NCBI GenBank assembly: GCA_002335055.1
Contig: DDCH01000004.1
Location: 215,678-279,677, forward strand
DNA: 64,000 nucleotides
From: Sulfurimonas sp. UBA2011
Lineage (GTDB): Bacteria > Campylobacterota > Campylobacteria > Campylobacterales > Sulfurimonadaceae
Direction: 5' to 3'
A model generated the notes under the pieces. The model was not told where the DNA came from. It saw nothing but the letters and a program-made list of their open reading frames with translations, and did not search any database. The position numbers and the translations under genes are program-made. Shown here piece after piece: positions 5,208 to 23,721 of this stretch (positions are counted from its first letter, which is position 1; the number at the start of each line of letters is the position of its first letter).

Positions 5208-5543
5208 TTAGTCGATTTTAATAGTAGAAGCGACTATATATAGGGGTGCACTATGTACATGTAGCATTGATGTACCTTTACCTAAAGCAAAACCATATAA
5301 GTCATTTTCTTTGATAAGTGTTATACCACTTGCCATATCAAGATAGGCTAGTACACTTTGTTCTAGTATTTTAGAAGACTGTATATCACTGAATCGTATT
5401 TTCACAGAGTACATATCTTCTCCATCTTCATCTTCATCTCCAAGTGTTACAATTCTTTCAGTAAGACTTATATACTCTACTGAACGAATCTGAGCACCTT
5501 TAAAGTTGTTGTATTTTTCTAATAGTGTATTAATTTCTTGCAT
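5208..5543 (-). CDS. hypothetical protein
   Basis: This 111-aa ORF has an acidic DEDEDGED stretch and no recognisable motif. It is the last gene of the tig-LRR-globin string. Confidence 0.45.
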   Translation of the reverse strand: MQEINTLLEKYNNFKGAQIRSVEYISLTERIVTLGDEDEDGEDMYSVKIRFSDIQSSKILEQSVLAYLDMASGITLIKENDLYGFALGKGTSMLHVHSAPLYIVASTIKID

Positions 5544-5581
5544 TATTTTCCTTTTTATAATTATAGCTAAAGTAGTTATGT

Positions 5582-5980: not shown

Positions 5981-6003
5981 TATATATCCTAATTTTAATT
6001 TGT

Positions 6004-8093: not shown

Positions 8094-8110
8094 CTCACCC
8101 AAAAGGGTGA
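8094..8110 (-). terminator. putative terminator of oxidoreductase operon 1
   Basis: CTCACCC-aaa-GGGTGAG lies 17 nt after the delta-1 stop. On the minus strand it is followed by TATATTTCATCATTT. Confidence 0.5.
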
Positions 8111-8126
8111 GAAATATTGAAAGTGA

Positions 8127-8351
8127 CTACTCTTCGTGACCAGCCATTTCCATTGTGATACAGTTACGATCAAGCATATCAGTACAAACGTATACACATA
8201 GTGCACACCCTTTACATCTATCTTCATCTACCCAAGATGTGTTACCATCTTTGTTGAACATAAGCGTATTTGCTTCTGGACAATATAATGTACAAGTGTT
8301 ACACTTGTACTCAGCACACATATCTGAATTAACTTTTGCTACATAATACAT
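8127..8351 (-). CDS. 2-oxoacid:ferredoxin oxidoreductase delta subunit (2x[4Fe-4S] ferredoxin-like), operon 1
   Basis: The 74-aa product has CAEYKCNTCTLYCP and CKGCALCVYVC cluster motifs. It is the last gene of operon 1 and is identical in protein sequence to 18883..19107. Confidence 0.85.
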   Translation of the reverse strand: MYYVAKVNSDMCAEYKCNTCTLYCPEANTLMFNKDGNTSWVDEDRCKGCALCVYVCTDMLDRNCITMEMAGHEE

Positions 8352-8362
8352 TTATAAAATCC

Positions 8363-9064
8363 TTATACTTTTAGTCTAACGATTAACTCGTTACCAGTAA
8401 TATCAACAGTATCAGCCATTTTGAATGTTTCATTGATAACATTCATGTTAGCTTCAAGTAGTTGCTCTTTTTTCTTGAACTTTTTCTCAATAGCAGAGTC
8501 AAGTGCAGCAGTACCACCAGATGCAACGAAAGAGTTTCCAAGGAATCTCTCACGAACTGCAGCTTCGATATGCTCTGTATTAACAAGCTTAGTAAGACCA
8601 AGAACCATACCCATCATTGCCATGTTTGTTGCAAGCTCAGTACCAGCAATTTTCATTGCTAGTCTAGTTGCGTCAAACTGAACAACAGTTGCGTTTTTTT
8701 CTTCAAGTACTGCTCTGTCATCTTCATTAAGAACATCAAAGTCAGTATTGATGATGATTAGTGCATTTGGCTTAAGACCAGTATAAAATGGCATAGTATA
8801 AGACTTACCATGAGTTACAACTTGTGAGTGGTAAATCAGGATAATATCTGGGTAAATTACTTCACCTACTTCATAAATTGGATCTGTTGATGCTCTTACA
8901 TAAGCTTCAACAGGTGCCATTCTTTTCTCAGAACCAAAAAATGGAACTAGAGATGCATAGTTACCTGCATTATCAAGACATGAACCAAGGATGTGTGCAG
9001 TAGTTACAACACCTTGACCACCTAGACCAGAAATACGTATATTATATCTTTTCTTTTCAGCCAT
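8363..9064 (-). CDS. 2-oxoacid:ferredoxin oxidoreductase gamma subunit, operon 1
   Basis: It starts MAEKKRYNIRISGLGGQGV, the gamma GxGGQG motif. I prefer the ATG at 9064, which is 1 nt after the beta stop and matches the paralogue's N-terminus, over the listed start at 9091. Confidence 0.85.
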   Translation of the reverse strand: MAEKKRYNIRISGLGGQGVVTTAHILGSCLDNAGNYASLVPFFGSEKRMAPVEAYVRASTDPIYEVGEVIYPDIILIYHSQVVTHGKSYTMPFYTGLKPNALIIINTDFDVLNEDDRAVLEEKNATVVQFDATRLAMKIAGTELATNMAMMGMVLGLTKLVNTEHIEAAVRERFLGNSFVASGGTAALDSAIEKKFKKKEQLLEANMNVINETFKMADTVDITGNELIVRLKV

Positions 9065-9065
9065 T

Positions 9066-9983
9066 TTAGTTAACCGCCTCTGCTGCTGCAACTTTTGCTG
9101 CTTTTCTTGCTTTTCTTGCTACTTTTTCTTCGCCTTCAACACGCTCGATTACTATTTTAGCTTCATCAGTCATATACTCATCAAATTTGAATCTACCTTT
9201 ACCAAGCTCAATAGCATCAGCAAAAACATCTTCAGTAGGAATAGAATACTCAATGTTACAAGAAGTGTAAGCATGAATAAAAGTTGGACCAACTTCACGT
9301 GCAACGAAGATTGCTCTTCTAATAACTTTTGCAGCTTGTTTGATGTTAGTTGGTGACATTCTTACAATGTAAACACAACCAGCAGCTTTAGCTAAATCAG
9401 TCGCAGGCATTTTCTCGAAGTCTTTACCCATTGGAGCCATCTTAAGAACAGCACCTTTTGGAGACATACCAGATGATTGACCACCAGTGTTTCCGTATAC
9501 TTCATTGTCAAGCATGATTGTAGTAAATCTTTCACCACGAATCCATGAGTGCATAGTCATAGAGAAACCAATATCCATAGTACCACCGTCACCGGCAATA
9601 GTAAGAACATCTTTAGTCTTATCAGGGAAACGTAATCTAAATGCACGAGTAAGACCAGAAGCCATTGCATTTTGATCACCATAGTTACCATAGATAAATG
9701 GAACAGCAGCTTGAGAAATCGCAAGACGACCACAACCAGCAGTACCAATTGTTACTGTTTCTTCCGGGCATGGAAGTGCAGCAAAAATTAATCTAATATA
9801 GTAAGCCATCCAGCAACCTGAACACATAGGGTGCTCTTCCATTAATTCTTTAAACTGACCCATGTTACCTGGACCAGCTTCTTCTTGTGTCTTTCCAAAA
9901 GGACCGAAGTCGATTAACTCAACGTAGTCTTTTGGTAAATATTTCTTAAATCTCTCTGATGGAGTAATATATGCTAAACTCAT
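9066..9983 (-). CDS. 2-oxoacid:ferredoxin oxidoreductase beta subunit (TPP-binding), operon 1
   Basis: It carries the TPP motif GDGGTMDIG...DNEVYGNTGGQ and N-terminal cluster cysteines (CSGC...CP...GC). Confidence 0.9.
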   Translation of the reverse strand: MSLAYITPSERFKKYLPKDYVELIDFGPFGKTQEEAGPGNMGQFKELMEEHPMCSGCWMAYYIRLIFAALPCPEETVTIGTAGCGRLAISQAAVPFIYGNYGDQNAMASGLTRAFRLRFPDKTKDVLTIAGDGGTMDIGFSMTMHSWIRGERFTTIMLDNEVYGNTGGQSSGMSPKGAVLKMAPMGKDFEKMPATDLAKAAGCVYIVRMSPTNIKQAAKVIRRAIFVAREVGPTFIHAYTSCNIEYSIPTEDVFADAIELGKGRFKFDEYMTDEAKIVIERVEGEEKVARKARKAAKVAAAEAVN

Positions 9984-9998
9984 AGTTTTATCCTTTTA

Positions 9999-11183
9999 TT
10001 ATAATTTAATATTGTGCTCAATACCGAGCGCATCGTATAGTTCAACCATGATAAGTTCAACTGGAAGTGTCATACCACCGTAAACTCTTGGACCTTCAAC
10101 AACGATACCACCATTAGGGATAGTCGCTTGAATTTCCTTAGATAACCAACCAATAATGTTGTGCTCAGGAACGATAAGAGCTTTAGCATTTTTAGCAGCT
10201 TCACGGATTTCATCTTTAGGGAAAGGTCTGATTGCTTTAACTTTAATTAAACCAACTGATAAACCTTCCTCTTGTGCGTATCTCCATGCTTCTCTAGCTT
10301 GTGCAGCAGCACAACCAGATGCAACAACAAATACATCAGCTTCAGGGTTTTGAACTTCAATTGGTCCACCAAGATACTCATAGATATATTTCATTGCACG
10401 AGAGTTAGAATCCCAAATCTCTTGTTGCCATACTGAGTGAATTAAATAACTCATAAAGTTTGACTTTTGAACAGGAGCATCACGTTGAATTCTTGCTGGA
10501 GGAGTTTCATTGTCCATTGCTGGAACTGGTGAAGCTACTGGATCAAATTCTTTGTAAACTAAGTCTTCAGACATCATGTCTACATAACCCTTAGCGTGTG
10601 TTACGAAGAAACCTTCTGTAGCAACTGCAACTGGAATATAAACGTCAACTTTTTCAGCAATAGCGAATGCTGCAAGTGTGAAGTCAAATGTATCTTGCTG
10701 ATTTTCAGCATGTAACATAACTGCACCACAATGCATCATATAAGCCATTTCGATATTATCAGGTTGAATTGATAATGGAGCATTAATAACACGAGTAAGG
10801 ATACCAAGTACCGCTGGAACTCTGTGTCCTGGCCATGAAGCGATTGCCTCTAAACCACGGATAAGTCCTGGTCCTGAAGTAGCTGTAAATAGACGAACAC
10901 CAGCTCTTGATGCACCAGCGATTGCTGACATTGTACCAAGCTCTTCTTCCGCTCTATAATACTCTTTAATGTGACCTTGAGCAAAAACATCACCAACAAG
11001 GTGCATAACCTCTGATTGTGGTGTAATTGGGTAAGCAATAGCCATGTCAACATTTGCTCTTTTAACAGCTTCAGACATTGCTTGCGCACCTGTGATGAAG
11101 TGTTTCTCTCTTGGAGCCTCATGTAGAAGATAGTTCATCTCTACTTGTTTTTTATTTAATACTGGTCTTTGAACTGCACTCAT
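9999..11183 (-). CDS. 2-oxoacid:ferredoxin oxidoreductase alpha subunit, operon 1
   Basis: AYPITPQSE, SGPGL and the C-terminal IRPFP segment are typical of KorA/PorA-type alpha subunits. Confidence 0.9.
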   Translation of the reverse strand: MSAVQRPVLNKKQVEMNYLLHEAPREKHFITGAQAMSEAVKRANVDMAIAYPITPQSEVMHLVGDVFAQGHIKEYYRAEEELGTMSAIAGASRAGVRLFTATSGPGLIRGLEAIASWPGHRVPAVLGILTRVINAPLSIQPDNIEMAYMMHCGAVMLHAENQQDTFDFTLAAFAIAEKVDVYIPVAVATEGFFVTHAKGYVDMMSEDLVYKEFDPVASPVPAMDNETPPARIQRDAPVQKSNFMSYLIHSVWQQEIWDSNSRAMKYIYEYLGGPIEVQNPEADVFVVASGCAAAQAREAWRYAQEEGLSVGLIKVKAIRPFPKDEIREAAKNAKALIVPEHNIIGWLSKEIQATIPNGGIVVEGPRVYGGMTLPVELIMVELYDALGIEHNIKL

Positions 11184-11195
11184 TTAATTTCTCCC

Positions 11196-11909
11196 TTATT
11201 CCGCGTCAGTGATATGCTCACCCTTCTTAGTCATGATGAGACTTCTATACTCGCCATAATCAGCAGGTGATAATGTACTGTTGTCCTCTTTTGGTAAAGA
11301 TGGATTTTCAGGTGGTAAAGTAGTTTCCCACTTAATGCCTAATTTATTTCTTTCTTCAATCACTATTTCTTTGAACTTAGCGATATCTGAAGCATGTAAA
11401 TCTCTAATTGATGCCATAGCTTCTTCATGTCCCATATAAGCACATAATGCAACTGTATAACAGTTAGTACCAGCACGAATCATTCTAAGTGTAAGGTTAG
11501 CATAGTGACAATGCACACCAACAAAAATACAAGCTTCGATTCTATTATCAAGGATTGTTAAGTTGGGGTGATTTGGGTTAATCTCAGCCTTAACATCAAT
11601 CTTTGGATATTTAGGTCTGTAATCTGGCATTGGAATAATTTTACAATTAGGAATTTCAGATGCTAGATCTAAAATAGCTGCTGATTTTTCTGCAACATCT
11701 TCTTTCCAGTCCCAAAGAACTTGAGGCCCAGGGAATATTGTTGGATTTTTTCTTGTAAGTAATGCAATAGCTGCATCTCTCATCGCCTCTTCTGGTGTCA
11801 CAGTATTACCATAGAGTAAAGCTGAACCTTCTGGTGCTAGTTCAACCCCCATCGCTGGTGCGGACGTTGGCATATAGCCTGCGGGGCCTACTTCTACTAT
11901 TTTCGTCAT
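11196..11909 (-). CDS. fifth (epsilon-like) subunit of a five-subunit 2-oxoacid:ferredoxin oxidoreductase, operon 1
   Basis: It is the first gene of the operon and a paralogue of 19250..19819, sharing IFPGPQVL, DYRPKYPKID, INPNHPNLT and GVHCHYAN. A subunit of this size accompanies the For/Por five-subunit enzymes of Hydrogenobacter, as I recall. Confidence 0.65.
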   Translation of the reverse strand: MTKIVEVGPAGYMPTSAPAMGVELAPEGSALLYGNTVTPEEAMRDAAIALLTRKNPTIFPGPQVLWDWKEDVAEKSAAILDLASEIPNCKIIPMPDYRPKYPKIDVKAEINPNHPNLTILDNRIEACIFVGVHCHYANLTLRMIRAGTNCYTVALCAYMGHEEAMASIRDLHASDIAKFKEIVIEERNKLGIKWETTLPPENPSLPKEDNSTLSPADYGEYRSLIMTKKGEHITDAE

Positions 11910-12432
11910 ATTAACTCCTTATATTTAATGAAAAAGTTTTGTTTAATACACTCTAATAAGTATATAAAACATTTTAAATTCAATATCTAATTATACATTT
12001 ACAACTAGATATAAAGTCCTACAAAAGAGTATAGCATCAGCTACTCTCTCGAAAAACTTGAATTTGTGCCTAATTGTATCGAAATAATCTTTAAGTAGAT
12101 TAAAATAATCCTCTGAATTTTCTATTAAGGACATAGATACAGTGGATTTAAAAGGAATATAAAGGAGAAAAGAGAGCATAGTATTTCAGATTGTTAGTCT
12201 AATATATGGCTTTAAGCATAGTAAAATAGGGCTTTATCGAAGATATGTTACTTGTTTTGTGACATAGTAGGAGATAGTTCTAAATATCGAGGAAAATGCG
12301 ATTATGTCAGGAGCTTTAAATTGTCTTATGTGGGTATATTCGTTACACTAATATATGGAGAAAAACCATATATTAGCTAGGGTGAGTATATTTGTTACAC
12401 ACTGATATAATAAATGTGTGTTAAAAATCTAC

Positions 12433-12690
12433 TTAACAACCGCAAGAACCACAACTATCTGTACTACAACTATCTTCTGAACCATTATTAGCTGCTACTC
12501 TAATTAAATATTCATTATCATTTGACTTTTCAGCATAAAACATATGTGTTTTACAAAAATCTTCATTCATCATTTCCATGAGACTTATTGTGTATTTGTA
12601 AGCTTCTGGTTGAAATTGAAATGTAGACTCTTTTTTATATTCACTTTTTAGAAAACAAGCACATTCGCGCTCCATTGTAACTGTATACAT
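12433..12690 (-). CDS. small Cys-rich protein, CxC...CxxH family, with CSTDSCGSCGC tail
   Basis: The 85-aa ORF has AAGGA 5-6 nt upstream and a TATAAT hexamer (12728-12733) about 38 nt upstream. It is a paralogue of 12862..13179, sharing MYT..[MI].[RK]ECACF.KS and N..FC..H.F.A. Confidence 0.6.
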   Translation of the reverse strand: MYTVTMERECACFLKSEYKKESTFQFQPEAYKYTISLMEMMNEDFCKTHMFYAEKSNDNEYLIRVAANNGSEDSCSTDSCGSCGC

Positions 12691-12821
12691 AGTGTTCCTT
12701 TTGGGTATTATTAACGAAAGTATAGTTATTATAACTGAAATAGAGGTATTTTTAATATGTAGTTGTGGTTGATAAAGATTTTTTTATTTTAAAGAAGTGA
12801 AAGTTTAGAAAGATATGCAAG

Positions 12822-12840
12822 AAGTGAGGTATACTCACTT
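12822..12840 (-). terminator. putative terminator of the dab operon
   Basis: AAGTGAG-gtata-CTCACTT (7-bp stem) lies 22 nt after the stop of the 105-aa gene and is followed by a moderately T-rich tract. Confidence 0.4.
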
Positions 12841-12861
12841 GTTACATAGTGTACAGTGTGC

Positions 12862-13179
12862 TTAGTTTCCACCAGCATCTTTTGGTGGTTTTTCACCAGC
12901 ATCAAAGCCGATTACAACACCACTTCTACTAACAAGCTCACTTGCTGTCTCAATATCATCTTCATCGTCTTCAATAGGTCTAACATTACTATGAATAATA
13001 ATCTTATCTTGATAGTCAACAGCTTGGAAATAATGCTTCATACAAAAGTTTTGATTCATAAGGCATTCTATAACACGTGCTTTATTAATCATGTCCTCTC
13101 TTGTCTCAAATTCCATATTGTTTTTTATGTCACTTTTTATAAAACAAGCACATTCTTTGTCAATTTCTATTGTATACAT
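12862..13179 (-). CDS. small CxC...CxxH protein, last gene of the dab operon
   Basis: The 105-aa ORF has AAGGAG 5 nt upstream and lies 26 nt after dabA. C10, C12, C46 and H49 are at the same positions as in the 85-aa paralogue. The C-terminus is acidic and Gly/Pro-rich. Confidence 0.6.
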   Translation of the reverse strand: MYTIEIDKECACFIKSDIKNNMEFETREDMINKARVIECLMNQNFCMKHYFQAVDYQDKIIIHSNVRPIEDDEDDIETASELVSRSGVVIGFDAGEKPPKDAGGN

Positions 13180-13205
13180 TTATTCTCCTTGAATATTTTT
13201 TGAAA

Positions 13206-16073
13206 TTATATCTCTTTTATAACAATAAACTCACCATTTTCATAAGAATAGACTTTTTTAGCCTCTCTATCTATGATGACGGGGCGAATCCATTCATTTA
13301 AAATAAATTCTTTTGCGATAGAATTCTCTACTGCTTTACCTACCATTTCTAAAGGTGCCTCAACAAATGAGATAAGACGAACCGGTTCGTGGTATGCTTC
13401 ACCTTCTAAAAATACAGACTGAATAGGTAGCCCAATTTTTAAGTCACTGTAGTTACCACTAAATACACCGACTTTTGATACGACGTTGTGATACACTTTT
13501 GAACCTGCACCATAGACATGGTTATCAACTGTAGAGAAGTAATGTTCTAGATTAATCCACTCACCTACAATTAATGGTCCATCAAAAATAGCTGTAAGAA
13601 TTTCAGCATCTTGGTTATCTACTTTATAGTCATAAGAGTGCATAAAAAATCTATTGTTAAGTTCTAGGTGTTTAGTATAAGACCTTGGCCCTGCAAATAC
13701 ACCCATATTACGTGCTAGTCCCCACTCAGGTCTAGTCTCAGACCAGTCCATAGACTTTATAAGCATCTCTTCTTTTGTGTTTGTAAAAGGAAGAGTTTGT
13801 GATCTCTCCTCACGTGAAAGTTGTGATGCCTTGTTGAAGTCATCTTTAATTTTTGAAAACTTTTCAGACTGTTCATCATTTAAAATTTCAGTATCAAAAA
13901 ACTTAATTTCATCAGTTGATGTAATATGAAGACCAGGCATAAACCTTGTATTTTCTGGAAGATGAATGCCTTTTTCTTTGATTTTTTCTCTAACATCTGG
14001 AGTATTAGCAATCATACAAAGCGCACGTGTGTTTGGTAAACTAATATTTCCACCACAAGCACCACAATCAAGTGCTGATTCAAAAGGATTATTATCAGAA
14101 ACAGATCCATGTCCAATTATTGTAATAAATTCTGGAAAGTTTTTCACCTGTCCAATCATTGTTAAGTATTTATATAGATAAGAAACTTTTTCTTCTAAGG
14201 TAAAACCAACCATAGCAAGCTTTTTCTTTTGGTACTCATAATCTTCTGGTGTAATCTGATATGATGTTTTAAGCTCATCGATCAAAGTGTCAGGTAAGTC
14301 CTTTTTTAATGCTTCATTAAAAAGAAGGTGTTTACGAAGATTTTCTACATCATCATCAGTACAGTTTTTCTTATCATGATCATCTAAAACAGCATGAATA
14401 ATCTTAGTATGCAGTTTTTTAACATAAAATTCAATTTCATCTGATGAGAGTTTATCAAGTGTGTAAGTCGTTTTTGGCTTACTTGGTTTCATCTTAGAAA
14501 AGAACTTGTTTGTTTTGATCGGTGAAAATGTTTTACCAAATAAAGTAATACCAAAAATCCAACCAATGGCTTCTACCATTATATATGGAGTATATGGGTT
14601 GTTCTTTAAGTCACTTAAAACTTTTTTTGTCGTTTTGTAAGTTCCTTTTTTTGAACTGTACTCTTCATGTACTTCAACCGGTAATTCAAATACAACATTT
14701 TGTGGTTTAATGATAGCAGGTGCTAAAAAAAGCTCATGTGCTTTGTCAAACTCTACAAAGGCTATAGGAAGACCAAGAAAACCTCCCGCTCCAAAAGTTT
14801 CATAGGCACCTTGGCTTTCAATTGAGCGGCGCATAACTTCTGAACGAACATCTAAACAAAAAGTTGCTGAGGCTATTGCTTTTTCTTTTACAGGTACAAC
14901 ATTAACAACTTCATCTACATAATGACTAATATATGTGTCTTCTAAAGATTTAAGCCAGATATACCCTTCTTCTTCTCGTAACTTATCTAAAATAGGAGAG
15001 AGCTCAGTTAAAGGAAGTTTACTTTGCAGAACTTCATTTGAGTGTTGAATTTGAAGTGCATCTAAATGTAATTCATTTTTAACATGGTCTGCTAAGACCT
15101 TTGAAGTCTCTTCCTTGTCTTCTAACTCATCTAAAGCTATTCCAAATAGCATATTTTTATGTTTGAGTAGTTGTAAAATTACATCACTTAAGTTTGCTTC
15201 AGCATATGCAGCAAAAATCTTAAAAGTACTAATCTTATTCGTTTTTACTGCTTTGAGTTCATAGTAGAGTCTAATAGCCATATAGTCTATAAGCTCAGAT
15301 GGATACTCTTGTTGTGAAACATTATCTGGATCTTCTGAACGATACTTAATAAATCCTGCCCAACCATGAAGTTTAAGAAGGTGTGTTAAAAAGTAAGACT
15401 CAATGTCCTCTACTTGAAGTTCTTTAAATGCCTCTTCTACAAAACTCTCAGCATTTTTTGGATAATCCACAGCCTCAAAAAGTTTAAAAACCTCAAACAT
15501 ACCTAAGTTTCTGTTTGGCATAGGCATTGTAGTCTGGTCTTCATCTAGAAAACGAGAGATAAATTCAATAATACTCTTTTCAATTCCATCTTTATCATCA
15601 AGCCCAAAGAGTGCATCATTAATCTCATATAGAGTCATGTGTTTGATAAGTTGGGCTAACCATGCTTTCTCATCAGAATATAAAGAGTGTGACTGTAAGT
15701 ATGCATATAAATCATCATCAGTTTTTTCTACTTTAGAAATAAGTTCTACTCTAAGACTTGACCATAAAGGACTTACTTCCATTAAGAACTTCTTAGCAAA
15801 CTCTAAAGGAATATTAAAACCCTTGTCTGTGAGAACTTTTTTGATATTTTCTTCAAATATGCTATCGTTAATTTTACCTTCTTCATAAAGATCTTTGTAA
15901 TATGAAGAGTCCATGTAAACCTGACCACCAAAAATACTTTTAGCCTTACTCAGTCCATCTTTAAAGTGCATGTTTTCAAAACCCTTTAAAGGGTTATGAT
16001 GAATAAACGATCCAATAGGCCAATAATGCGGTACGGTGCTCTTTACAGCATTAAGTTTTTCTATAATACTCAT
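13206..16073 (-). CDS. dabA: DabA (DUF2309 family), catalytic subunit of a DAB inorganic-carbon pump
   Basis: The 955-aa product starts with HYWPIGSFIHHNPL. It has beta-carbonic-anhydrase-like metal-site motifs FCLDVRSE (C-x-D-x-R) and GHGSVSDNNPFESALDCGACGG. It is encoded next to a NuoL-like subunit. Confidence 0.85.
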   Translation of the reverse strand: MSIIEKLNAVKSTVPHYWPIGSFIHHNPLKGFENMHFKDGLSKAKSIFGGQVYMDSSYYKDLYEEGKINDSIFEENIKKVLTDKGFNIPLEFAKKFLMEVSPLWSSLRVELISKVEKTDDDLYAYLQSHSLYSDEKAWLAQLIKHMTLYEINDALFGLDDKDGIEKSIIEFISRFLDEDQTTMPMPNRNLGMFEVFKLFEAVDYPKNAESFVEEAFKELQVEDIESYFLTHLLKLHGWAGFIKYRSEDPDNVSQQEYPSELIDYMAIRLYYELKAVKTNKISTFKIFAAYAEANLSDVILQLLKHKNMLFGIALDELEDKEETSKVLADHVKNELHLDALQIQHSNEVLQSKLPLTELSPILDKLREEEGYIWLKSLEDTYISHYVDEVVNVVPVKEKAIASATFCLDVRSEVMRRSIESQGAYETFGAGGFLGLPIAFVEFDKAHELFLAPAIIKPQNVVFELPVEVHEEYSSKKGTYKTTKKVLSDLKNNPYTPYIMVEAIGWIFGITLFGKTFSPIKTNKFFSKMKPSKPKTTYTLDKLSSDEIEFYVKKLHTKIIHAVLDDHDKKNCTDDDVENLRKHLLFNEALKKDLPDTLIDELKTSYQITPEDYEYQKKKLAMVGFTLEEKVSYLYKYLTMIGQVKNFPEFITIIGHGSVSDNNPFESALDCGACGGNISLPNTRALCMIANTPDVREKIKEKGIHLPENTRFMPGLHITSTDEIKFFDTEILNDEQSEKFSKIKDDFNKASQLSREERSQTLPFTNTKEEMLIKSMDWSETRPEWGLARNMGVFAGPRSYTKHLELNNRFFMHSYDYKVDNQDAEILTAIFDGPLIVGEWINLEHYFSTVDNHVYGAGSKVYHNVVSKVGVFSGNYSDLKIGLPIQSVFLEGEAYHEPVRLISFVEAPLEMVGKAVENSIAKEFILNEWIRPVIIDREAKKVYSYENGEFIVIKEI

Positions 16074-16801
16074 AGTAGTATCTCCTTAAGTCCATATAGA
16101 CTAAACAATAGTAACATACCAACGATAAGCATGTGTGGTATTTTTTCTTTTATTGTCATATGTACATAATGTATGTTTGCGTTTGGTCTTCCAAAAAGTG
16201 TTTTTTTCATTACACCCATAGAAAGAAAAAAGTTACCAAAAAAGAGTGTTATAACAACAGCAAACCAAAGAGGATTCGACTCGCTTCCTAAAATATAGTG
16301 TAGAAAAAAGAGTGAATTTGGAAAAGGTGGATATAGCGCTACTGCAATCAGGTAAAAAGTTAAGTAACTACCAATGTATGGTCTCACTAGTGTGATCCCT
16401 GTTATGTAACGATAATTAGCACTACCATAGTTTTTCTCATAAAATCTTCCTATCAAGTAGAGACCTGAAAGGGATAAAAGAAGAGAAAGACTATATAAAG
16501 AACTCTCTCCTTCATAAAGAACAAAAAATGGAGCATTAACAAATATAAAATAATATGCAAGTTTATAAAAGTTTGTTGTTTTTGTTGCTCTATAGATAGT
16601 AAAGACTGCATTTATGAGTGAAATAATTACAAGTGATGTTTTATGCTCATTTGGTACATACAGTGAAAGCCCAATATTAGATAAAAGTGCAAAAGCACTC
16701 AGTAAAAATATATGCTTACTTTTAATAGCAGGAATTTTTTCCAATATAAGATAATAAGGAACTCCTGCGGCTAATATCAAAAATAGAATATTATAGATCA
16801 T
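16070..16801 (-). CDS. polytopic membrane protein resembling the C-terminal half of an antiporter-like (NuoM/N/L) subunit
   Basis: The 243-aa product has about 7-8 hydrophobic helices. The segment ALYPPFPNSLFFLHYILGSESNPLWFAVVITLFFGNFF recalls the PP.GF..K region of Nuo/Mrp antiporter subunits. Its start overlaps the dabB stop by 11 nt and its stop overlaps the dabA start (ATGA). Confidence 0.65.
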   Translation of the reverse strand: MIYNILFLILAAGVPYYLILEKIPAIKSKHIFLLSAFALLSNIGLSLYVPNEHKTSLVIISLINAVFTIYRATKTTNFYKLAYYFIFVNAPFFVLYEGESSLYSLSLLLSLSGLYLIGRFYEKNYGSANYRYITGITLVRPYIGSYLTFYLIAVALYPPFPNSLFFLHYILGSESNPLWFAVVITLFFGNFFLSMGVMKKTLFGRPNANIHYVHMTIKEKIPHMLIVGMLLLFSLYGLKEILL

Positions 16802-18422
16802 TTTTATTCCTTTTTAGGGCTTTAATAATATTAAAGAAGTAACCTTCTTTTGCTAGAAATTTATAAAATGACCATTTAAGGCTATTTTTGTTTTCGTTAG
16901 TTTTAAGGACTTTTGCAAAGTGTTGTGTATACATAAATAACCACCCTACAATCATAATAGCGGCTAAGATAACAAGTAACATAATAGTAGTTATGTTAAA
17001 TGTTGCTGCTTCATAAAAGAGAATTGCATTTTCTCCGTAGATAAAATGTTCTAATGATAAACCAATAAACTCATATGTAAAAAGAATAATAACAAATGAA
17101 CTTACAAGTGCTAATATAACCTTGAATGAGTCGGCTTTAGATACTTTAAAGAATGAGAGAAAAAGTTGTGTACCAGTTAACCAAGCAAAGGCCAATATAA
17201 TGATAGAAGCATTAAGCTCAAAGAAGTCATCAGTTAATACCATTTTTACACCTACAAAAGTCACAACAGGTAAGATAGTGAAAAAAGCTAAGTAGTTAAA
17301 CAGTTTTTTACTATTACTTTTAATCTTTTCTTCCCAAAAGAGCTCATATGTAAGGCGTTTAGGTAGGTTTGAGTCATGACGCGCTAACTTAATCAATGCT
17401 CCTGACTCTAAAAAGAGTGTAGCTTTGAATATACCATGGACTATGAGGTGATAAATAGCAAGAGAGAAAGCACCAAGGCCTATCTCCATAATCATATATC
17501 CCATCTGTCCAACTGTGGAGTATCCTAAAGAGCGTTTGATATCAGAGACAACAAGCATAATCAAAGAGGCAAAAATTGCTGTTACTAAACCAACTACAAA
17601 AGCGATGTTAAGTACAGCAGGTGCAAGTAGTAAAAGAAAAGCGAGTTTGTTAAGTAAAATTCCTCCTACATTAACTACACCAGCATGCATAACAGCAGAT
17701 ACAGGAGTAGGGGCTTCTGATGTATATGGTAACCAGATATGAAAAGGCATAATAGCTGACTTCATCATAGCCGCTATTAAAAAGAGTAAACCAATAACAA
17801 AAATCATTGGATTATCTACTGGTTCATGCGACATAGCTAACCATTTCTCACTTAATATAGTTAAGTCTAAACTATCAAATGTTTGATATGTTAAGATAAT
17901 AGCGATTATAAAGACTAAATCGGCAGCTTTATGAATTATCATAACCCATTTTGCATTTTTTACAGCAGTGTTTGAGCCGACATTAAATGAAACAAGCAGA
18001 TATAAACTAATACTAAGTAGTTGCCAAGCAAGAGCAAGTACTATAAGGTTGTTACTCATTACAAATAGATATATAGAAGCGAAGATAAAGTTTAAAAGAA
18101 TAAAAAATCTTCTATAACCTGCTTCATCCCACATATACTTAGTTGCATACTTTCTTATGACAAGACCGAGTATAGCAACATAAGGGACTAGTATCGCTGA
18201 GAGTTCATTATATACAAGAAGGCCATCAAAGCCAATAATCTGTGTATCATTACTTATGACATAATATGTACCATACAATGCAAGTAGTGCTATCATACTT
18301 GAAAGCATGATACTAACCCTTGGTATAAGTTCTTTTTTTCCGATAAATAGCAATAAGAATGCTATGAAAATTGGGATACCCGGAATGAGTAATATTATTT
18401 TTTCCACTGTAACTCCTGACAT
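16791..18422 (-). CDS. dabB: DabB (NuoL/ND5-like proton-conducting membrane subunit)
   Basis: The 543-aa product carries KSAIMPFHIWLPYTSEAPTPVSAVMHAGVVNVGG and DIKRSLGYSTVGQMGYM...HGIFKATLFL, the PF00361-type signature as I remember it. Confidence 0.85.
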   Translation of the reverse strand: MSGVTVEKIILLIPGIPIFIAFLLLFIGKKELIPRVSIMLSSMIALLALYGTYYVISNDTQIIGFDGLLVYNELSAILVPYVAILGLVIRKYATKYMWDEAGYRRFFILLNFIFASIYLFVMSNNLIVLALAWQLLSISLYLLVSFNVGSNTAVKNAKWVMIIHKAADLVFIIAIILTYQTFDSLDLTILSEKWLAMSHEPVDNPMIFVIGLLFLIAAMMKSAIMPFHIWLPYTSEAPTPVSAVMHAGVVNVGGILLNKLAFLLLLAPAVLNIAFVVGLVTAIFASLIMLVVSDIKRSLGYSTVGQMGYMIMEIGLGAFSLAIYHLIVHGIFKATLFLESGALIKLARHDSNLPKRLTYELFWEEKIKSNSKKLFNYLAFFTILPVVTFVGVKMVLTDDFFELNASIIILAFAWLTGTQLFLSFFKVSKADSFKVILALVSSFVIILFTYEFIGLSLEHFIYGENAILFYEAATFNITTIMLLVILAAIMIVGWLFMYTQHFAKVLKTNENKNSLKWSFYKFLAKEGYFFNIIKALKRNKNDL

Positions 18423-18882
18423 TTTTTATTAATAGTATAAGACTTTTAGCATTTATATTTTTAAGTTAAGTTAAATATATAAATGAATTTAGATAGTAAA
18501 GCTAATATTTAGTGACTCTATCAGTTTACCATATTTGTAATACATTTCGACAGACTATTGTTAAAGGTGTAAAAAGTAATACTGTTTTGAAAATAAAAGA
18601 TAAATTTTACATGACTTGTTACACTTTGTAGCACAAGTATAGTGAACCTAAAAATAAAATCTGATTGATTTAATTAAATCATCGACAAATTTGTGTTTAT
18701 ATTAGGTAAAATCTTAACTAAATAGATAAAATAAGATTGTAATGTCTTAAATTAAAGAGAATTAAAAGGTTATTTGAGTAAAGTGCTATTCGAGAAACAT
18801 AAATTATAGTTTAAAACTATTGTTAGGTCTTATTTATATAAGAACTGATACCAATGTTTAAGTCATCATTAAGGAGTAAATA
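18423..18882. promoter_or_regulatory. 460-bp divergent control region between dabB and oxidoreductase operon 2
   Basis: This is the longest intergenic spacer of the locus and is extremely AT-rich. It must contain the dab promoter and the delta-2 promoter. SD AAGGAG lies 7 nt before ATG 18883. Confidence 0.5.
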
Positions 18883-19107
18883 ATGTATTATGTAGCAAAA
18901 GTTAATTCTGACATGTGTGCTGAATATAAATGTAACACTTGTACTTTATATTGTCCAGAAGCGAATACGCTAATGTTCAATAAGGATGGTAACACATCTT
19001 GGGTCGATGAAGATAGATGTAAGGGGTGTGCACTATGTGTGTACGTATGTACTGATATGCTTGATCGTAACTGTATTACGATGGAAATGGCTGGTCACGA
19101 AGAGTAG
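18883..19107 (+). CDS. 2-oxoacid:ferredoxin oxidoreductase delta subunit (2x[4Fe-4S]), operon 2
   Basis: The protein is 100% identical to that of 8127..8351. There are 16 nucleotide differences, all synonymous. It is followed by a 142-nt spacer. Confidence 0.85.
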   Translation: MYYVAKVNSDMCAEYKCNTCTLYCPEANTLMFNKDGNTSWVDEDRCKGCALCVYVCTDMLDRNCITMEMAGHEE

Positions 19108-19249
19108 ACTCAGTAGTGTTGTACACATTGTGTATTATGTATGAGGTTATTTAGTAACAGTGAAAACTGTGTTTAGATAGTTGAAATACAAGAAAATAAA
19201 TCTATAGTTAGTATTTAATTATAATATATAAAAATTTATAGGAGAACTT

Positions 19250-19819
19250 ATGGCAAATCAAGGCCCCGCGTATTATTCACCGTATCCTGCGGCATTATAT
19301 GAAGGTGTAATTACACCACCAGAAGGAAAAGCACTTTTATTAGAAGAAGTGGTAGACGAAGAAATTGCAATGAGAGAAATCGCAAAGCAAATGTTAACTA
19401 AAGAAAATGCAACAATTTTCCCTGGTCCACAAGTGTTATATGGTTACAATGAAGAAGCAAAGAAAAAAGCTACTCTAATTAAAGAGATGGCTGAAGTTCT
19501 TAATGCTAAAATGATTCCAATGTATGACTACAGACCAAAGTATCCTAAAATTGATGCTGAAGTTGAAATCAATCCAAATCACCCGAACTTAACAATTTGG
19601 CATAACAACATTAAAGCAGCAATTTTTATTGGTGTTCACTGTCACTATGCTAACGTTGCATTAAAAATGGTTAGATGTGAAACAGATTGTTACACTATCG
19701 CTATTTGTGGTTTGTCAGGGCATGAAGATGCTATGGCTACATTAAGAGATCAGCATTCTTCAGAACTTGAGAAATTTATCAAGATAGCTAGAGAAGTAAA
19801 AGCAGAACTAAAATTATAA
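19250..19819 (+). CDS. fifth (epsilon-like) subunit, operon 2
   Basis: This 189-aa protein is a paralogue of 11196..11909 and lacks that protein's roughly 45-aa C-terminal extension. Confidence 0.65.
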   Translation: MANQGPAYYSPYPAALYEGVITPPEGKALLLEEVVDEEIAMREIAKQMLTKENATIFPGPQVLYGYNEEAKKKATLIKEMAEVLNAKMIPMYDYRPKYPKIDAEVEINPNHPNLTIWHNNIKAAIFIGVHCHYANVALKMVRCETDCYTIAICGLSGHEDAMATLRDQHSSELEKFIKIAREVKAELKL

Positions 19820-19834
19820 GAAAAGGAGAACTAA

Positions 19835-21034
19835 ATGGCATCAATTAAAGATATGACAGATACACATAACTGGTCTGGACAGAAATTAGTTACAGCAGAT
19901 CACATGCTTTTCGAAGCACCACGTGAAAAGCACTTCATGACTGGTTCTGAAGTTTTAAAAGAAGCGGTAAAAAGATGTACAGTAGATGCATCAGTATCTT
20001 ACCCAATTACACCACAATCAGAAGCAGCTCACCTTATCGGTGAACTATGGGCTGAAGGTTATGTTGGTACATACTTCCGTGGAGAAAATGAGTTCGGTGT
20101 TATGTCAGAAGTTGCTGGTTGTGCAATGGCTGGAGCAAGAACTATTACTACGACTTCAGGTCCTGGTACACTTAGAGCAATGGAAAACTTTCCACAATGG
20201 TCTGGTACAAGAATTCCTTGTCAACTAATCCTTATGGCTCGTGGTATTAACTCACCACTTACTATTCAACCTGATAATCTTGAAGTTACATTCATGTTAG
20301 AAACTGGTTGTATGATTTGGTATGCTGAAAATGTTCAAGAGTTATTTGACATGAGTATCGCTGCATTTATCGTTGCTGAAAAGCCTGATGTACATGTGCC
20401 TATCGTTACTGTTGTTGATGGTTTCTTTGTATCTCATACACGTGAGTCTGTAATGTTACCAGCTGATGATATCGCTCTTTTACCTTACGAGCCATACAAA
20501 TCTCCATTACCTCCGATTGATTCTGAAACTCCTCCAGGTCGTTTCTTAAGAGATCCATTTGTAATGAAGTCTAACTATATTTCTTATGCAACTCACGCTT
20601 CATGGCAGTGGGAAGTGAGATCTGCAGTTGAGCGTTCACGTCCATATGCTAAGCACTTCCTTAACGGTCTTGTTCATGTAACTGGAGCTCCTGACGCTGA
20701 AATCGCATTTGTTACTTGTGGTACTGCTTCTCATCAAGCAAAAGAAGCTGAAAGAGAGTTAATGAAACTTGGTGTTAAAACTAAGGTTATTAAACTTAGA
20801 ACTATCAGACCATTTCCAAAAGAAGAACTTCTTGCTGAGCTTGAAGGCGTTAAACATATTTTCGTACCAGAATTCAACGTTGTTGGTTGGTTAGAAAAAG
20901 AAGTTAAAACTGCTCTTCATAACAATCACACAGCTGAAGTTGTTGGTGGCCCTAGAGTTGCTGGTGGTATGAGTATGCCTGCTGAAGCGATTCTTAAAGA
21001 AGTGTTTGAACACATTAACGTAGAAGGAAAATAA
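19835..21034 (+). CDS. 2-oxoacid:ferredoxin oxidoreductase alpha subunit, operon 2
   Basis: It carries the SYPITPQSE, SGPGT and IRPFP motifs. Confidence 0.9.
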   Translation: MASIKDMTDTHNWSGQKLVTADHMLFEAPREKHFMTGSEVLKEAVKRCTVDASVSYPITPQSEAAHLIGELWAEGYVGTYFRGENEFGVMSEVAGCAMAGARTITTTSGPGTLRAMENFPQWSGTRIPCQLILMARGINSPLTIQPDNLEVTFMLETGCMIWYAENVQELFDMSIAAFIVAEKPDVHVPIVTVVDGFFVSHTRESVMLPADDIALLPYEPYKSPLPPIDSETPPGRFLRDPFVMKSNYISYATHASWQWEVRSAVERSRPYAKHFLNGLVHVTGAPDAEIAFVTCGTASHQAKEAERELMKLGVKTKVIKLRTIRPFPKEELLAELEGVKHIFVPEFNVVGWLEKEVKTALHNNHTAEVVGGPRVAGGMSMPAEAILKEVFEHINVEGK

Positions 21035-21035
21035 G

Positions 21036-21905
21036 ATGGCAATTGATATATACAAAATCAACCCTGAATTCCGTGACATTATGCCTAAAGAGATTATTGA
21101 TCTTGAGGAAAATGCAACATGGGCTCAAAACCGAATAAAACCACGTGGTATTAAAGAAATGCCAGATACTAAAGAGATTCTAGAAGAACACTCTTTATGT
21201 GCTGGTTGTCCTGAATCTGCTGCACTTAGATATGTTCTAGCAGCATTACCATGTCCAGAAGAGACTATAATTGTTAACTCAACTGGTTGTACTTCTTTGA
21301 TGTTCCCACACATCGCACTTCATACTGTTCACTCACTTTTTGGTAATCAAAATGCTGTTGCAACTGGTATTAAGCGTGTTCTTGACTGGAGATTTCCAGA
21401 TAAGCAAAAAGATGTTATGGTTCTAGCTGGAGACGGTGCTACTGTTGATATCGGTCTTGACTATACACTTCAGTCTTTCTTTAGACAAGAAAATATCACT
21501 ACAATTTGTTTTGATAATGAAGTTTATGCAAATACTGGTGGACAAGAATCAGGTGCAACTCCAAAAGGTCAAGTTTTCAAAATGGCACCTTTAGGTAAGA
21601 AATTTGAAAAAGTTAAAATGTGGGAATTAGCTACTACTGCTGGTTGTCATTATACTATGAACATGACTGCTTCTGCTCCTAAAGCAGTTGCTAAAGCTGT
21701 TCGTGAAGCTATTTTAGTTGCAAGAGAAATCGGACCAACATTCCTTAACATTTATACTCCTTGTATTCTTGAAATTGGACTTAGTGCAAATGAAGGTCTT
21801 GGCGAAATGAAAGATCAAGATAAAGATAGATTTGCATCTTACAAGTTTGTTTCTCCAGAAGCAGAAGAATACTTGAAAAAATGTAAAGCAGAAGGAAAGT
21901 TATAA
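21036..21905 (+). CDS. 2-oxoacid:ferredoxin oxidoreductase beta subunit (TPP-binding), operon 2
   Basis: It carries GDGATVDIG...DNEVYANTGGQ and the CAGC...CP...GC cysteines. Confidence 0.9.
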   Translation: MAIDIYKINPEFRDIMPKEIIDLEENATWAQNRIKPRGIKEMPDTKEILEEHSLCAGCPESAALRYVLAALPCPEETIIVNSTGCTSLMFPHIALHTVHSLFGNQNAVATGIKRVLDWRFPDKQKDVMVLAGDGATVDIGLDYTLQSFFRQENITTICFDNEVYANTGGQESGATPKGQVFKMAPLGKKFEKVKMWELATTAGCHYTMNMTASAPKAVAKAVREAILVAREIGPTFLNIYTPCILEIGLSANEGLGEMKDQDKDRFASYKFVSPEAEEYLKKCKAEGKL

Positions 21906-22627
21906 TGGCTAAAGATTCAATCAAAGTAAGACTTCCGGGTCTTGGTGGTCAAGGTGCAGTTACAGCTGCACACATCGCAGCTACTGCTGCTGATACTGAA
22001 GGATACTTCGCTGTGTCTAATCCATTTTTTGGTGCAGAAAAGCGTATGGCTCCATCTGAGTCTTATGCAAGAATAGGTACTGTGCCTATTTACGATAGAG
22101 GGGAAGTAATTTATCCTGATATCGTTATGATTTTCCACCCACAAGTTATTACTATGGGTAAATCATACACTATGCCTTTTTATGCTGGTATTAAAGATAA
22201 TGGTCTTGTTATTATTAACTCTGATATTGATCTTTTAACTGATGTTGATAAGAGAATTCTTGCTGACAAAAATGTTAAAGTACTTACTCGTGACTTTACT
22301 AAGTTTGCAATTGAGCAAGCTGGTACTGAACTTGCTACAAACATGGCTATGCTTGGTGCATTATTTGGTGCTCTTGGTACAATCTCTAAGTCTGCTATTG
22401 AAGAGGGAATCAAAGATAGATTCCTTAAGAAATATACAGCTTCTGGTGGTACTGCTACACTCGATTCAGTTATTGAAAAGAAATTTAAGAAAAAGAAAGA
22501 ACTTATTCAAAAAAATCTTGATACTGCATCAGCTGCTTATGATTTAACTGCTGCTTGGGCTAAAGAAGTAGGACTAGAACAAATTCTAGAACCTTCTAAG
22601 CACAACAACGGTAACATCGTAAAGTAA
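21905..22627 (+). CDS. 2-oxoacid:ferredoxin oxidoreductase gamma subunit, operon 2
   Basis: It starts MAKDSIKVRLPGLGGQGAV and is collinear with 8363..9064. Confidence 0.85.
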   Translation: MAKDSIKVRLPGLGGQGAVTAAHIAATAADTEGYFAVSNPFFGAEKRMAPSESYARIGTVPIYDRGEVIYPDIVMIFHPQVITMGKSYTMPFYAGIKDNGLVIINSDIDLLTDVDKRILADKNVKVLTRDFTKFAIEQAGTELATNMAMLGALFGALGTISKSAIEEGIKDRFLKKYTASGGTATLDSVIEKKFKKKKELIQKNLDTASAAYDLTAAWAKEVGLEQILEPSKHNNGNIVK

Positions 22628-22634
22628 TAATTTT

Positions 22635-22661
22635 AACTGTGCCTTTGGCACAGTTATTTAT
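22635..22661 (+). terminator. rho-independent terminator of operon 2
   Basis: AACTGTGCC-ttt-GGCACAGTT (9-bp perfect stem) is followed by ATTTAT. Confidence 0.7.
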
Positions 22662-22746: not shown

Positions 22747-23721
22747 ATGATACAGTCATTTATAATTACAGGATTTTTAGGCGTTGGTAAAACAACTATG
22801 TTAACTAATACAGTTAAAGAGCATTTCGCTGATAAAAAAGTAGCTATTGTAGTTAATGAGTTTGGCGATATTGGAATCGATGGAGATATACTCAGTAATG
22901 TATATAGTGAAGTCCTTGAAATTTCAGAGGGTTGTATCTGTTGTCAACTCTCAGAAGAGTTTGAAAGCGGTGTAATGGAAATTATTGAGAAGTATAAGCC
23001 TGAAATTATCTTCGTAGAGACTTCAGGAGCATCTGAGCCTTTTCCTATTTTTATGTCTATGCAAAACCTTGGTGTTACAGTCGAGGGTATTATTTGTGTG
23101 ATTGATTCTAAAAACTTAGACTCTTACAAAGATAATTCTACTGCAAAGTATCAGGTTGGTGGGTCAAATATAATTGTTTTAAATAAAACAGACCTAGTAA
23201 ATGATGAAGAGTTAGCAGTAGTTAAACAGCAAGTTATAGAGATGAAAGACTCACATAATATAAAGAATAATCTTACTGGTGAAACAGTTTTTAATAACTA
23301 TGTAATTACTGAAGCTTCAGAGGGTCTTGTAAAGAAAGATATCTTTGAAGGTGTATATAAAATTGATGAGATTATTGGACTTGCTAAAGACTATCAACAT
23401 CCAGATCATACTCATGATGACTCTATAACTCAGCAAATAGCTTACCTCAAAGAAGATATCAAATTTGAAGATGTTGACATAATACTAAAGAATATTCCAA
23501 AGAGTGTTTATAGAGTAAAGGGAGTGGTTAAGGTGACAGATGTACCTAACCCAATAGTTGTAAACTACTCTTTTGGTAATGTTTCATTTGAAGAGCTTGA
23601 TGAGTATGCCCACCCATCTATCATGATATTTATCGGAGAGTCTATACTTGATGATGTAGAAACATTATGTGAGCAGTACTCTTATATAAATATACCGAAG
23701 TTTAAACTGACTTCATTTTAA
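22747..23721 (+). CDS. COG0523/CobW-family G3E GTPase (putative metallochaperone)
   Basis: It has Walker A GFLGVGKTT, the CxCC motif EGCICCQ, NKTD, and a His-rich stretch DYQHPDHTHDD. Confidence 0.85.
   Translation: MIQSFIITGFLGVGKTTMLTNTVKEHFADKKVAIVVNEFGDIGIDGDILSNVYSEVLEISEGCICCQLSEEFESGVMEIIEKYKPEIIFVETSGASEPFPIFMSMQNLGVTVEGIICVIDSKNLDSYKDNSTAKYQVGGSNIIVLNKTDLVNDEELAVVKQQVIEMKDSHNIKNNLTGETVFNNYVITEASEGLVKKDIFEGVYKIDEIIGLAKDYQHPDHTHDDSITQQIAYLKEDIKFEDVDIILKNIPKSVYRVKGVVKVTDVPNPIVVNYSFGNVSFEELDEYAHPSIMIFIGESILDDVETLCEQYSYINIPKFKLTSF

Follow-up and report, generated by a model that had tools for sequence, protein, structure and literature searches.

Five-subunit 2-oxoacid:ferredoxin oxidoreductase operons and a predicted DAB pump in one gene cluster of Sulfurimonas sp. 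UBA2011 and in related loci

Closest described systems

Five-subunit forms of the two oxidoreductases that carboxylate in the reverse form of the tricarboxylic acid cycle (rTCA cycle), 2-oxoglutarate:ferredoxin oxidoreductase (OGOR, or OOR) and pyruvate:ferredoxin oxidoreductase (POR), have been described in “S. pluma” and Sulfurovum AR by Molari et al. (2023; PMC10066037), who reported their Aquificales affinity and synteny. In the same paper, the alpha-subunit genes are very highly expressed, the host lineage is presented as autotrophic by way of the rTCA cycle, and the five-subunit form is described as O2 tolerant but slow. A preprint (10.64898/2026.09.02.748891) extends the five-subunit Por/Oor to other Campylobacterota, including those of the surface ocean, notes that the operons lie close together, and infers that the enzymes were acquired horizontally from an Aquificota-related donor. 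DAB and DabA are mentioned in neither publication (0 occurrences). Here, we describe a gene cluster that combines two operons for such enzymes with genes for a predicted DAB inorganic-carbon pump. It is found in a 64,000-nucleotide stretch of the genome of Sulfurimonas sp. UBA2011 (GenBank assembly GCA_002335055.1, contig DDCH01000004.1, positions 215,678 to 279,677 of the forward strand), which is referred to below, at its full length, as the window.

The general pattern that this cluster follows is on record. According to the accessible portions of two papers from one laboratory (Scott et al. 2024, PMC10880623; FEMS Microbes 2026, PMC13147460), genes for inorganic-carbon transporters and for carbonic anhydrase commonly share a location with those for oxoacid:ferredoxin oxidoreductases in members of the Campylobacterota, Aquificota, and Nitrospirota that use the rTCA cycle; co-expression is proposed there to help the carboxylases, and the mechanism is flagged as unstudied. 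Those portions give no separate treatment to five-subunit enzymes, a for-dab-por sandwich, cobW, the membrane protein gene X, or the small Cys-rich proteins dealt with below. The original prediction, made from the sequence of the window, had taken such a co-localization to be undescribed; it had already been covered by the 2024 and 2026 papers, and both the five-subunit type and the closeness of the two operons had been published as well (PMC10066037 and the above preprint). The cluster is thus an already known kind of arrangement, in which both the pattern and its components have been published before.

As to the individual parts, the enzymes resemble ForDABGE and PorEDABG of Hydrogenobacter thermophilus TK-6 in having the same five subunit types, including one with the PF02552 (CO_dh-like) domain, and the same gene orders, and the proteins of operon 1 are 59 to 75% identical to their Hydrogenobacter counterparts. 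On Hydrogenobacter contigs with an identical ForA, the for operon is likewise followed by cobW and dabBA. Unlike in Hydrogenobacter, the two ferredoxin subunits in the window are identical to each other, the por operon is linked to the block, DabB is split between two genes, and the place of the P-II gene after dabA is held by two genes, s1 and s2, whose products carry a CxC...CxxH motif. The clusters published for “S. pluma,” Sulfurovum AR, and the surface ocean share with the window the enzyme type, the Aquificales affiliation, a globin-like gene nearby, and the presence of two operons on one contig “separated by a gap”; in the window this gap is filled by dabB-X-dabA-s1-s2, whereas no DAB was reported there. 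The reading that we favor, with moderate confidence, is that the cluster represents a conserved rTCA carboxylation module of Aquificota and many Campylobacterota.

Oxidoreductases, pump, and their linkage

The conserved block extends from position 8127 to approximately 23721 of the window (Table 1). It consists of a For-type operon and dabB-X-dabA with two small Cys-rich genes on the minus strand, followed by a second five-subunit operon and a gene for a CobW-like GTPase on the plus strand. Domains were assigned by Pfam and NCBIfam matches on translations of the open reading frames (ORFs) of the window; the ORF listing and domain scans located every gene that had been listed in the original prediction. 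The span of 8127 to 22627 proposed in it was confirmed as such but stopped short, because the two small ORFs and the GTPase gene belong to the same conserved block.

Both operons encode an alpha, a beta, and a gamma subunit, a subunit with two [4Fe-4S] motifs, and a PF02552 subunit, and are therefore of the five-subunit Hydrogenobacter type rather than the classical four-subunit one, as had been predicted. The models for four-subunit PorCDAB and OorDABC score far lower: OorA (NF007206) yields 70 bits against a cut-off of 579, the PorA models yield 130 to 180 bits against cut-offs of 550 to 646, and the CO_dh-like subunit is present in addition. Scores for all four-subunit and catabolic equivalogs in NCBIfam are far under their cut-offs, and no grouping with catabolic oxidoreductases is seen. 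Instead, operon 1 goes with the anabolic For of H. thermophilus. Its alpha subunit is 74.7% identical to ForA of strain TK-6 (BAI69553.1; UniRef100_D3DIA1), which was returned by a search seeded with an Aquificota orthologue, whereas the alpha subunit of operon 2 is only 45.8% identical to Hydrogenobacter ForA. The corresponding values for operons 1 and 2 are 63.8% versus 42.2% for beta, 71.5% versus 53.0% for gamma, and 66.2% versus 60.2% for the CO_dh-like subunit, the match of ForD to the 237-amino-acid (aa) Hydrogenobacter protein being full length; the ferredoxin subunit ForE is 58.6% identical to its Hydrogenobacter counterpart. Judging by these comparisons, operon 1 is the orthologue of the biochemically characterized, O2-tolerant ForDABGE of H. 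thermophilus. No structure of a five-subunit oxidoreductase was found in the PDB. The YPITP motif is present in the translated alpha subunits of both operons, and ForB carries a GDG...NE..GNTGGQ motif along with conserved Cys residues. ForG comprises 233 aa from the ATG that gene callers use, also in contigs with an identical protein, and 242 aa from an upstream TTG.

Proteins 100% identical to the ForA of the window are encoded in Sulfurimonas metagenome-assembled genomes (MAGs) and, in the same gene layout, in the metagenome contigs PicMicro, MCRcombined, and supr47, names that suggest samples from hydrothermal vents or plumes. The ForA of Sulfurovum AR is 86% identical to that of the window, and the window DabA is 93% identical to a protein of a Sulfurimonas MAG.

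Operon 2 is paralogous to operon 1, its alpha subunit being 43% identical to ForA of the window, and is putatively a POR operon. This assignment draws on the gene order, on elimination, and on published trees in which near-identical sequences of Sulfurimonas and Sulfurovum resolve into one Por and one Oor (PMC10066037; preprint 10.64898/2026.09.02.748891). The argument from gene order depends on the naming of the subunits. The Hydrogenobacter for operon was published as forDABGEF (PMC2607301), and the Hydrogenobacter contigs with an identical ForA show the order korBA (divergent), CO_dh(237)-A(389)-B(288)-G(227)-Fd(74)-97aa-cobW-dabB(753)-dabA(994)-P-II, with protein lengths in parentheses. 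The match between the two strings means that D is the CO_dh-like subunit (delta in the Hydrogenobacter naming) and E the small ferredoxin (epsilon), in agreement with the eggNOG gene names in the preprint. Operon 1 thus has the order forDABGE. Operon 2 has the order Fd-CO_dh-A-B-G. The por operon of Hydrogenobacter reportedly has the order porEDABG, which is said to go back to Ikeda et al. in 2006 and would be the same. A ferredoxin gene followed by a 189-aa CO_dh-like gene (porE-porD) is also found downstream of dabA in the Hydrogenothermaceae locus described below (L082). The contention that neither operon matched the Hydrogenobacter orders proved to be a naming artefact, since the 74-aa subunit had been called delta; both orders match once the Hydrogenobacter names are used.

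The genes between the two operons encode a bona fide DAB, as had been proposed, with PF10070 and PF00361 subunits in one operon and all four Zn ligands kept; its pump activity is predicted. DAB2 (DAC) of Halothiobacillus neapolitanus (Desmarais 2019; PMC13144422, PDB 9rd0), which a cryo-electron microscopy study describes as a one-way CO2 hydratase driven by proton-motive force (PMC13144422), has the same composition, with a PF10070 subunit that contains a Cys-Asp-His-Cys Zn site and a NuoL-like PF00361 subunit. The window DabA matches DabA2 of H. neapolitanus with E=4e-78; overall identity is low and only the catalytic regions align well. The DabA2 Zn ligands C351, D353, H524, and C539 align with C406, D408, H655, and C670 of the window protein, and none of the four varies among 10 DabA sequences from Campylobacterota. 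Conservation of the Zn ligands is the criterion that the Scott laboratory applies to DabA (PMC13147460). Unlike DAB2 of H. neapolitanus, the DAB of the window belongs to an rTCA organism without a carboxysome, includes a third membrane gene, and is accompanied by other accessory genes.

This third gene, X, is a separate gene. The stop and start codons of dabB, X, and dabA overlap on one strand, which makes an apparent operon. Its product matches no family in Pfam (at E values up to 10) or NCBIfam. DabB is 34.8% identical to residues 51 to 517 of the 753-aa Hydrogenobacter DabB, and a hidden Markov model built from 68 X orthologues matches residues 645 to 751 of the same protein (E=2e-6; hhalign E=6e-4). 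In BLASTP, X also matches the 187-aa ORF that separates dabB from dabA on a contig of Hydrogenothermaceae (E=7e-15). X is therefore equivalent to the C-terminal extension (approximately 110 residues) of long DabB proteins. In the window, as in Hydrogenothermaceae, two genes make up the membrane part, which is fused in Aquificaceae. The split DabB is possibly a new detail.

For a wider survey, a DabA alignment was run against 185,579 species-representative genomes. This yielded 72 loci, which belong to Sulfurimonas, Sulfuricurvum, Sulfurovum, further MAGs of Campylobacterales, and a single MAG of Hydrogenothermaceae; the loci were then searched by tblastn with the window proteins. Linkage was counted at the 27 loci where dab is flanked by 7 kb or more in both directions. 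One or both five-subunit operons accompany dabA at 26 of these 27 loci (the only locus with none is L009), and both do so at 21, lying one on each side of dab in 10 cases and on the same side in 11. Among the 22 loci in which both operons are complete, 10 have the layout of the window, with por (and cobW beyond it) divergent from dab and for located downstream of dab in either orientation. The string forD-A-B-G-E-porD-A-B-G is seen in 10 of the same 22; cobW comes next in 8 of these 10, and the string converges on dab in 9 of them and is divergent from dabB in one (L048). The Aquificota locus L047 has the arrangement por / dabB-X-dabA / cobW-for. In a Hydrogenothermaceae MAG (L082; JAOABH010000003.1, positions 1 to 21170), all genes are on one strand in the order mdh-fumAB-sucCD-forDABGE-95aa-cobW-278aa-dabB-X-dabA-porE-porD, where mdh codes for malate dehydrogenase, fumAB for fumarase (alpha, then beta), and sucCD for succinyl-CoA synthetase (beta, then alpha), and the 278-aa protein has a Glu_syn_central match. 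This supercluster of rTCA and DAB genes is much larger than that in the window.

In the reverse direction, metagenome contigs were scanned with the CO_dh-like subunit. Among loci of at least 15 kb, dabA is present in 8 of the 12 of Campylobacterota type and in 1 of the 3 of Aquificota type, and three shorter Aquificota-type contigs also show for-cobW-dabB. The adjacency, whose uniqueness to this genome would have spoken against the original prediction, is therefore not unique, as attested both by the neighborhoods of dabA and by the Aquificota contigs. The linkage characterizes the Aquificota/Campylobacterota clade of the enzymes and has survived many rearrangements. One of these may be seen in “Candidatus Sulfurimonas marisnigri” (L077; CP054493.1, positions 718129 to 739313), where two insertion sequence (IS)/transposase genes of the rve family bracket a segment comprising the for operon and the trigger factor gene, and dabA is located approximately 9 kb downstream of for, with IS elements in between; this suggests a recent rearrangement of the module.

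Accessory genes, ferredoxin copies, and neighboring genes

The coordinates of the features are listed in Table 1.

Table 1. Features of the conserved block in the Sulfurimonas sp. UBA2011 window (por gene names are putative)
Feature	Position	Strand	Product or structure	Observations
Hairpin	8094..8111	-	Terminator-like hairpin at the end of operon 1	7-bp stem (5 G-C pairs) starting 16 nt downstream of the forE stop codon
forE	8127..8351	-	Ferredoxin-like subunit, 74 aa	Two [4Fe-4S] motifs, Cx4Cx2Cx3CP and Cx2Cx2Cx3C; Fer4_21 and PorD_KorD matches
forG	8363..9064	-	Gamma subunit, 233 aa	PF01558, E=7e-35
forB	9066..9983	-	Beta subunit (thiamine pyrophosphate [TPP] and [4Fe-4S]), 305 aa	PF02775 (TPP_enzyme_C)
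forA	9999..11183	-	Alpha subunit, 394 aa	POR_N and PFOR_II
forD	11196..11909	-	CO_dh-like fifth subunit, 237 aa	PF02552, E=1e-43
s2	12433..12690	-	85 aa, CxC...CxxH motif and Cys-rich C-terminal tail	Downstream of dabA in 44/72 loci
s1	12862..13179	-	Paralogue of s2, 105 aa	Directly after dabA; in 61/72 loci
dabA	13206..16073	-	Cytoplasmic beta-carbonic-anhydrase-like subunit of DAB/DAC, 955 aa	PF10070, E=5e-204
X	16070..16801	-	Membrane protein, 243 aa	Overlaps dabB and dabA
dabB	16791..18422	-	NuoL-like membrane subunit	PF00361 and PF00662
porE	18883..19107	+	Second ferredoxin subunit, 74 aa	100% protein identity to ForE
porD	19250..19819	+	CO_dh-like subunit, 189 aa	PF02552, E=3e-48
porA	19835..21034	+	Alpha subunit, 399 aa	POR_N and PFOR_II
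porB	21036..21905	+	Beta subunit, 289 aa	PF02775; TPP motif and conserved Cys residues
porG	21905..22627	+	Gamma subunit, 240 aa	PF01558, E=1e-37
Hairpin	22634..22656	+	Terminator-like hairpin after porG	10-bp stem, then T-rich tail
cobW-like	22747..23721	+	COG0523 GTPase, candidate metallochaperone	PF02492, E=1e-45; GxxGxGKT (GFLGVGKTT) and GCICC motifs

The two copies of the 74-aa ferredoxin subunit gene differ at 16 DNA positions, all of them third codon positions and synonymous, and have unrelated flanks, which rules out recent gene conversion as the whole explanation of their identity at the protein level. A single copy, located between forG and porD, is found in 10 of the 22 loci with both operons complete, and the Aquificota locus L047 also has only one; the Hydrogenothermaceae locus has two copies that are 64% identical. 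The identical copies, together with the single-copy relatives, suggest that one ferredoxin subunit serves both enzymes, and in Campylobacterota the ferredoxin-like epsilon subunit is probably common to the two. The presence of a single ferredoxin subunit gene for both operons in many relatives is possibly another new detail.

The family formed by s1 and s2 is rare, with 96 representative clusters among 1.84 billion proteins, and its named members seen so far are all annotated as “hypothetical protein” and come from Sulfurimonadaceae. The pattern C10-x-C12...C46-x2-H49 is kept in every family sequence inspected, and a 59-nt direct repeat (12632-12690 and 13121-13179) corresponds to the homologous 5' ends of s2 and s1. 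Neither protein matches any family in Pfam (at E values up to 10) or NCBIfam. The AlphaFold model of s1, built from a two-row alignment, has a beta-beta-alpha-beta-beta layout with a core pLDDT of approximately 80; a Foldseek comparison of this model with the PDB gave no significant match (best E value, 0.3). An HMA-like metallochaperone fold was considered for s1 and s2 and is unsupported. The occurrence of this uncharacterized CxC...CxxH family within the dab operon is possibly new. The same may hold for the COG0523 GTPase with its GCICC motif, which travels with the block in both phyla. Its scores for the CobW and ZigA equivalogs are under the respective cut-offs. Its gene was detected in 41 of the 72 dabA loci, nearly always beside porG, precedes forD in L015 and L016, and is located between for and dab in Aquificota.

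Downstream of the trigger factor gene (6668-7924), the minus strand of the window (5208-6711) encodes a leucine-rich repeat protein (6004-6711), a 132-aa ORF (5582-5980) with a weak match to bacterial globins (E=0.013), and an ORF of 111 aa. Sulfurovum AR and TSL1 have these three genes after their for operons as well, and the globin-like one fits the globin co-location described in the preprint. Further away (3531-4637), a sulfite-oxidase-type molybdoenzyme of 262 aa (Oxidored_molyb and Mo-co_dimer domains) precedes an ORF of 102 aa that weakly matches cytochrome c; the two may represent a sulfite dehydrogenase pair of the SorAB-like kind. A check of the 64-kb window for carbonic anhydrase, pyruvate carboxylase, and additional rTCA genes turned up only accD and housekeeping genes. 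Likewise, scans of window ORFs of at least 100 aa (all but four) found no carboxysome shell proteins, carboxysomal carbonic anhydrase, or RubisCO.

A possible role in rTCA carbon fixation

That the linkage is conserved in both Aquificota and Campylobacterota speaks for a functional coupling of the genes and for their spread as a block, and the module has probably moved between the two phyla in that form. If it works as a unit, DAB would spend proton-motive force on hydrating the CO2 that diffuses into the cell, trapping it as bicarbonate and raising the cytoplasmic inorganic-carbon pool, out of equilibrium, in CO2-poor water, for which the oxic habitats of near-neutral to alkaline pH from which these lineages have been described are an example. 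According to Table 1 of PMC10880623, POR and OGOR use CO2 and pyruvate carboxylase uses bicarbonate. The bicarbonate pool could feed bicarbonate-dependent steps directly, biotin carboxylases and the carboxylation of pyruvate among them, and, after uncatalyzed or low-level catalyzed dehydration, could sustain the supply of CO2 to the slow, O2-tolerant OGOR and POR. DAB might also recapture CO2 that would otherwise leak out. Gene linkage would allow co-inheritance and probably co-regulation, and the epsilon subunit is probably shared by POR and OGOR.

Several observations weigh against the carboxylation module as we read it. Its weak step is the conversion of bicarbonate to CO2, given that POR and OGOR use CO2 and that no carbonic anhydrase gene is found in the 64-kb window. 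High cytoplasmic carbonic anhydrase activity would dissipate the inorganic-carbon pool. Modeling cited by Scott et al. (PMC10880623) allows low-level co-expression of carbonic anhydrase. The question of how a bicarbonate-delivering pump would serve CO2-using carboxylases was legitimately raised in the original prediction and is already present in the literature. The functional link between dab and for/por in this organism is, moreover, a putative one drawn from gene linkage, and operon 2 is a putative POR operon by gene order, elimination, and published trees. The accessible supplements of the “S. pluma” paper (PMC10066037) contain nothing on dab expression. Terminator-like hairpins after each oxidoreductase operon separate the units, and an analysis of 9-mer conservation upstream of for, dab, and por at approximately 50 loci revealed no convincingly shared motif. 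Finally, the for operons of Sulfurovum AR and TSL1 have no DAB within 10 kb, and dabA lies within 10 kb in none of 15 high-GC, Nitrospirota-like five-subunit loci of at least 15 kb, even though the pattern described in PMC10880623 and PMC13147460 includes Nitrospirota. The enzymes thus do not strictly need an adjacent DAB. As to their own gene orders, high-GC metagenome contigs of this kind (L135 to L163; GC content, 0.47 to 0.62; presumably Nitrospirota-like) show G-Fd-CO_dh-A or CO_dh-A-G-Fd.

Three other explanations rank lower than a carboxylation module. DAB might mainly supply bicarbonate-dependent carboxylases (pyruvate carboxylase, acetyl-CoA carboxylase, PurK, and, in Aquificaceae, 2-oxoglutarate carboxylase), its position next to for and por then reflecting a general carbon-fixation regulon and not a function for the two oxidoreductases. 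Such a role would agree with the substrate preferences given above, with the delivery of bicarbonate only by DAB (PMC13144422), and with the Hydrogenothermaceae locus, where the block sits beside mdh, fumarase, and succinyl-CoA synthetase genes as in a general rTCA cluster. However, neither in the window nor in the loci examined does a gene for a bicarbonate-dependent carboxylase adjoin the module, the single such gene of the window, accD, being 21 kb off, and the linkage is specific to for/por and survives many rearrangements; we consider this explanation unlikely. It is less probable still that the genes are historical passengers, which entered Campylobacterota on one Aquificota-derived fragment and have not yet separated, with no functional coupling. 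Random decay of linkage would have scattered such genes, whereas dab is always within a few kilobases of for/por in at least four arrangements (flanking, tandem, inverted, and with cobW moved), and the linkage holds across two phyla and across DabA divergence to approximately 50% identity. The horizontal acquisition inferred in the preprint, the occurrence of the same block in Hydrogenothermaceae, the IS elements around the for operon in “Ca. Sulfurimonas marisnigri,” and the loss of linkage in some Sulfurovum strains would, on the other hand, all be expected of passengers.

Some databases name homologues of these proteins “Na-translocating system protein MpsB,” and the oxidoreductases are reversible in principle (PMC13147460), so that dabB-X-dabA could be a cation-translocating, membrane-potential-generating (Mps-like) system or the oxidoreductases could run oxidatively, in catabolism. 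We regard either as very improbable: all carbonic-anhydrase-like Zn ligands are kept, structural and functional work favors CO2 hydration and argues against sodium coupling (PMC13144422), operon 1 is orthologous to the anabolic For of H. thermophilus, and the host lineage, according to its description, fixes carbon by the rTCA cycle and expresses por/oor at very high levels (PMC10066037).

The carboxylation module could also be taken much further than we do, with for-cobW-dabB-X-dabA-(s1-s2)-por acting as a self-contained, carboxysome-free CO2-concentrating mechanism for the rTCA cycle. The CxC...CxxH proteins and the COG0523 GTPase would then be dedicated to it and might insert Zn into DabA, regulate the pump, or tether it, the shared ferredoxin would couple POR and OGOR, and carbon would be handed locally to the oxidoreductases, not simply released into the cytoplasm. 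We view this extended version as a long shot.

As a carboxylation module, the cluster would join an energy-driven CO2 trap to O2-tolerant five-subunit versions of the enzymes for the two O2-sensitive rTCA steps, a combination that may explain how rTCA autotrophs such as the plume Sulfurimonas live in oxic, CO2-poor seawater. The value of the finding lies in the breadth of its conservation and in the few uncharacterized accessory genes, and this conservation points to tractable organisms, such as Hydrogenobacter thermophilus and cultured Sulfurimonas or Sulfurovum.

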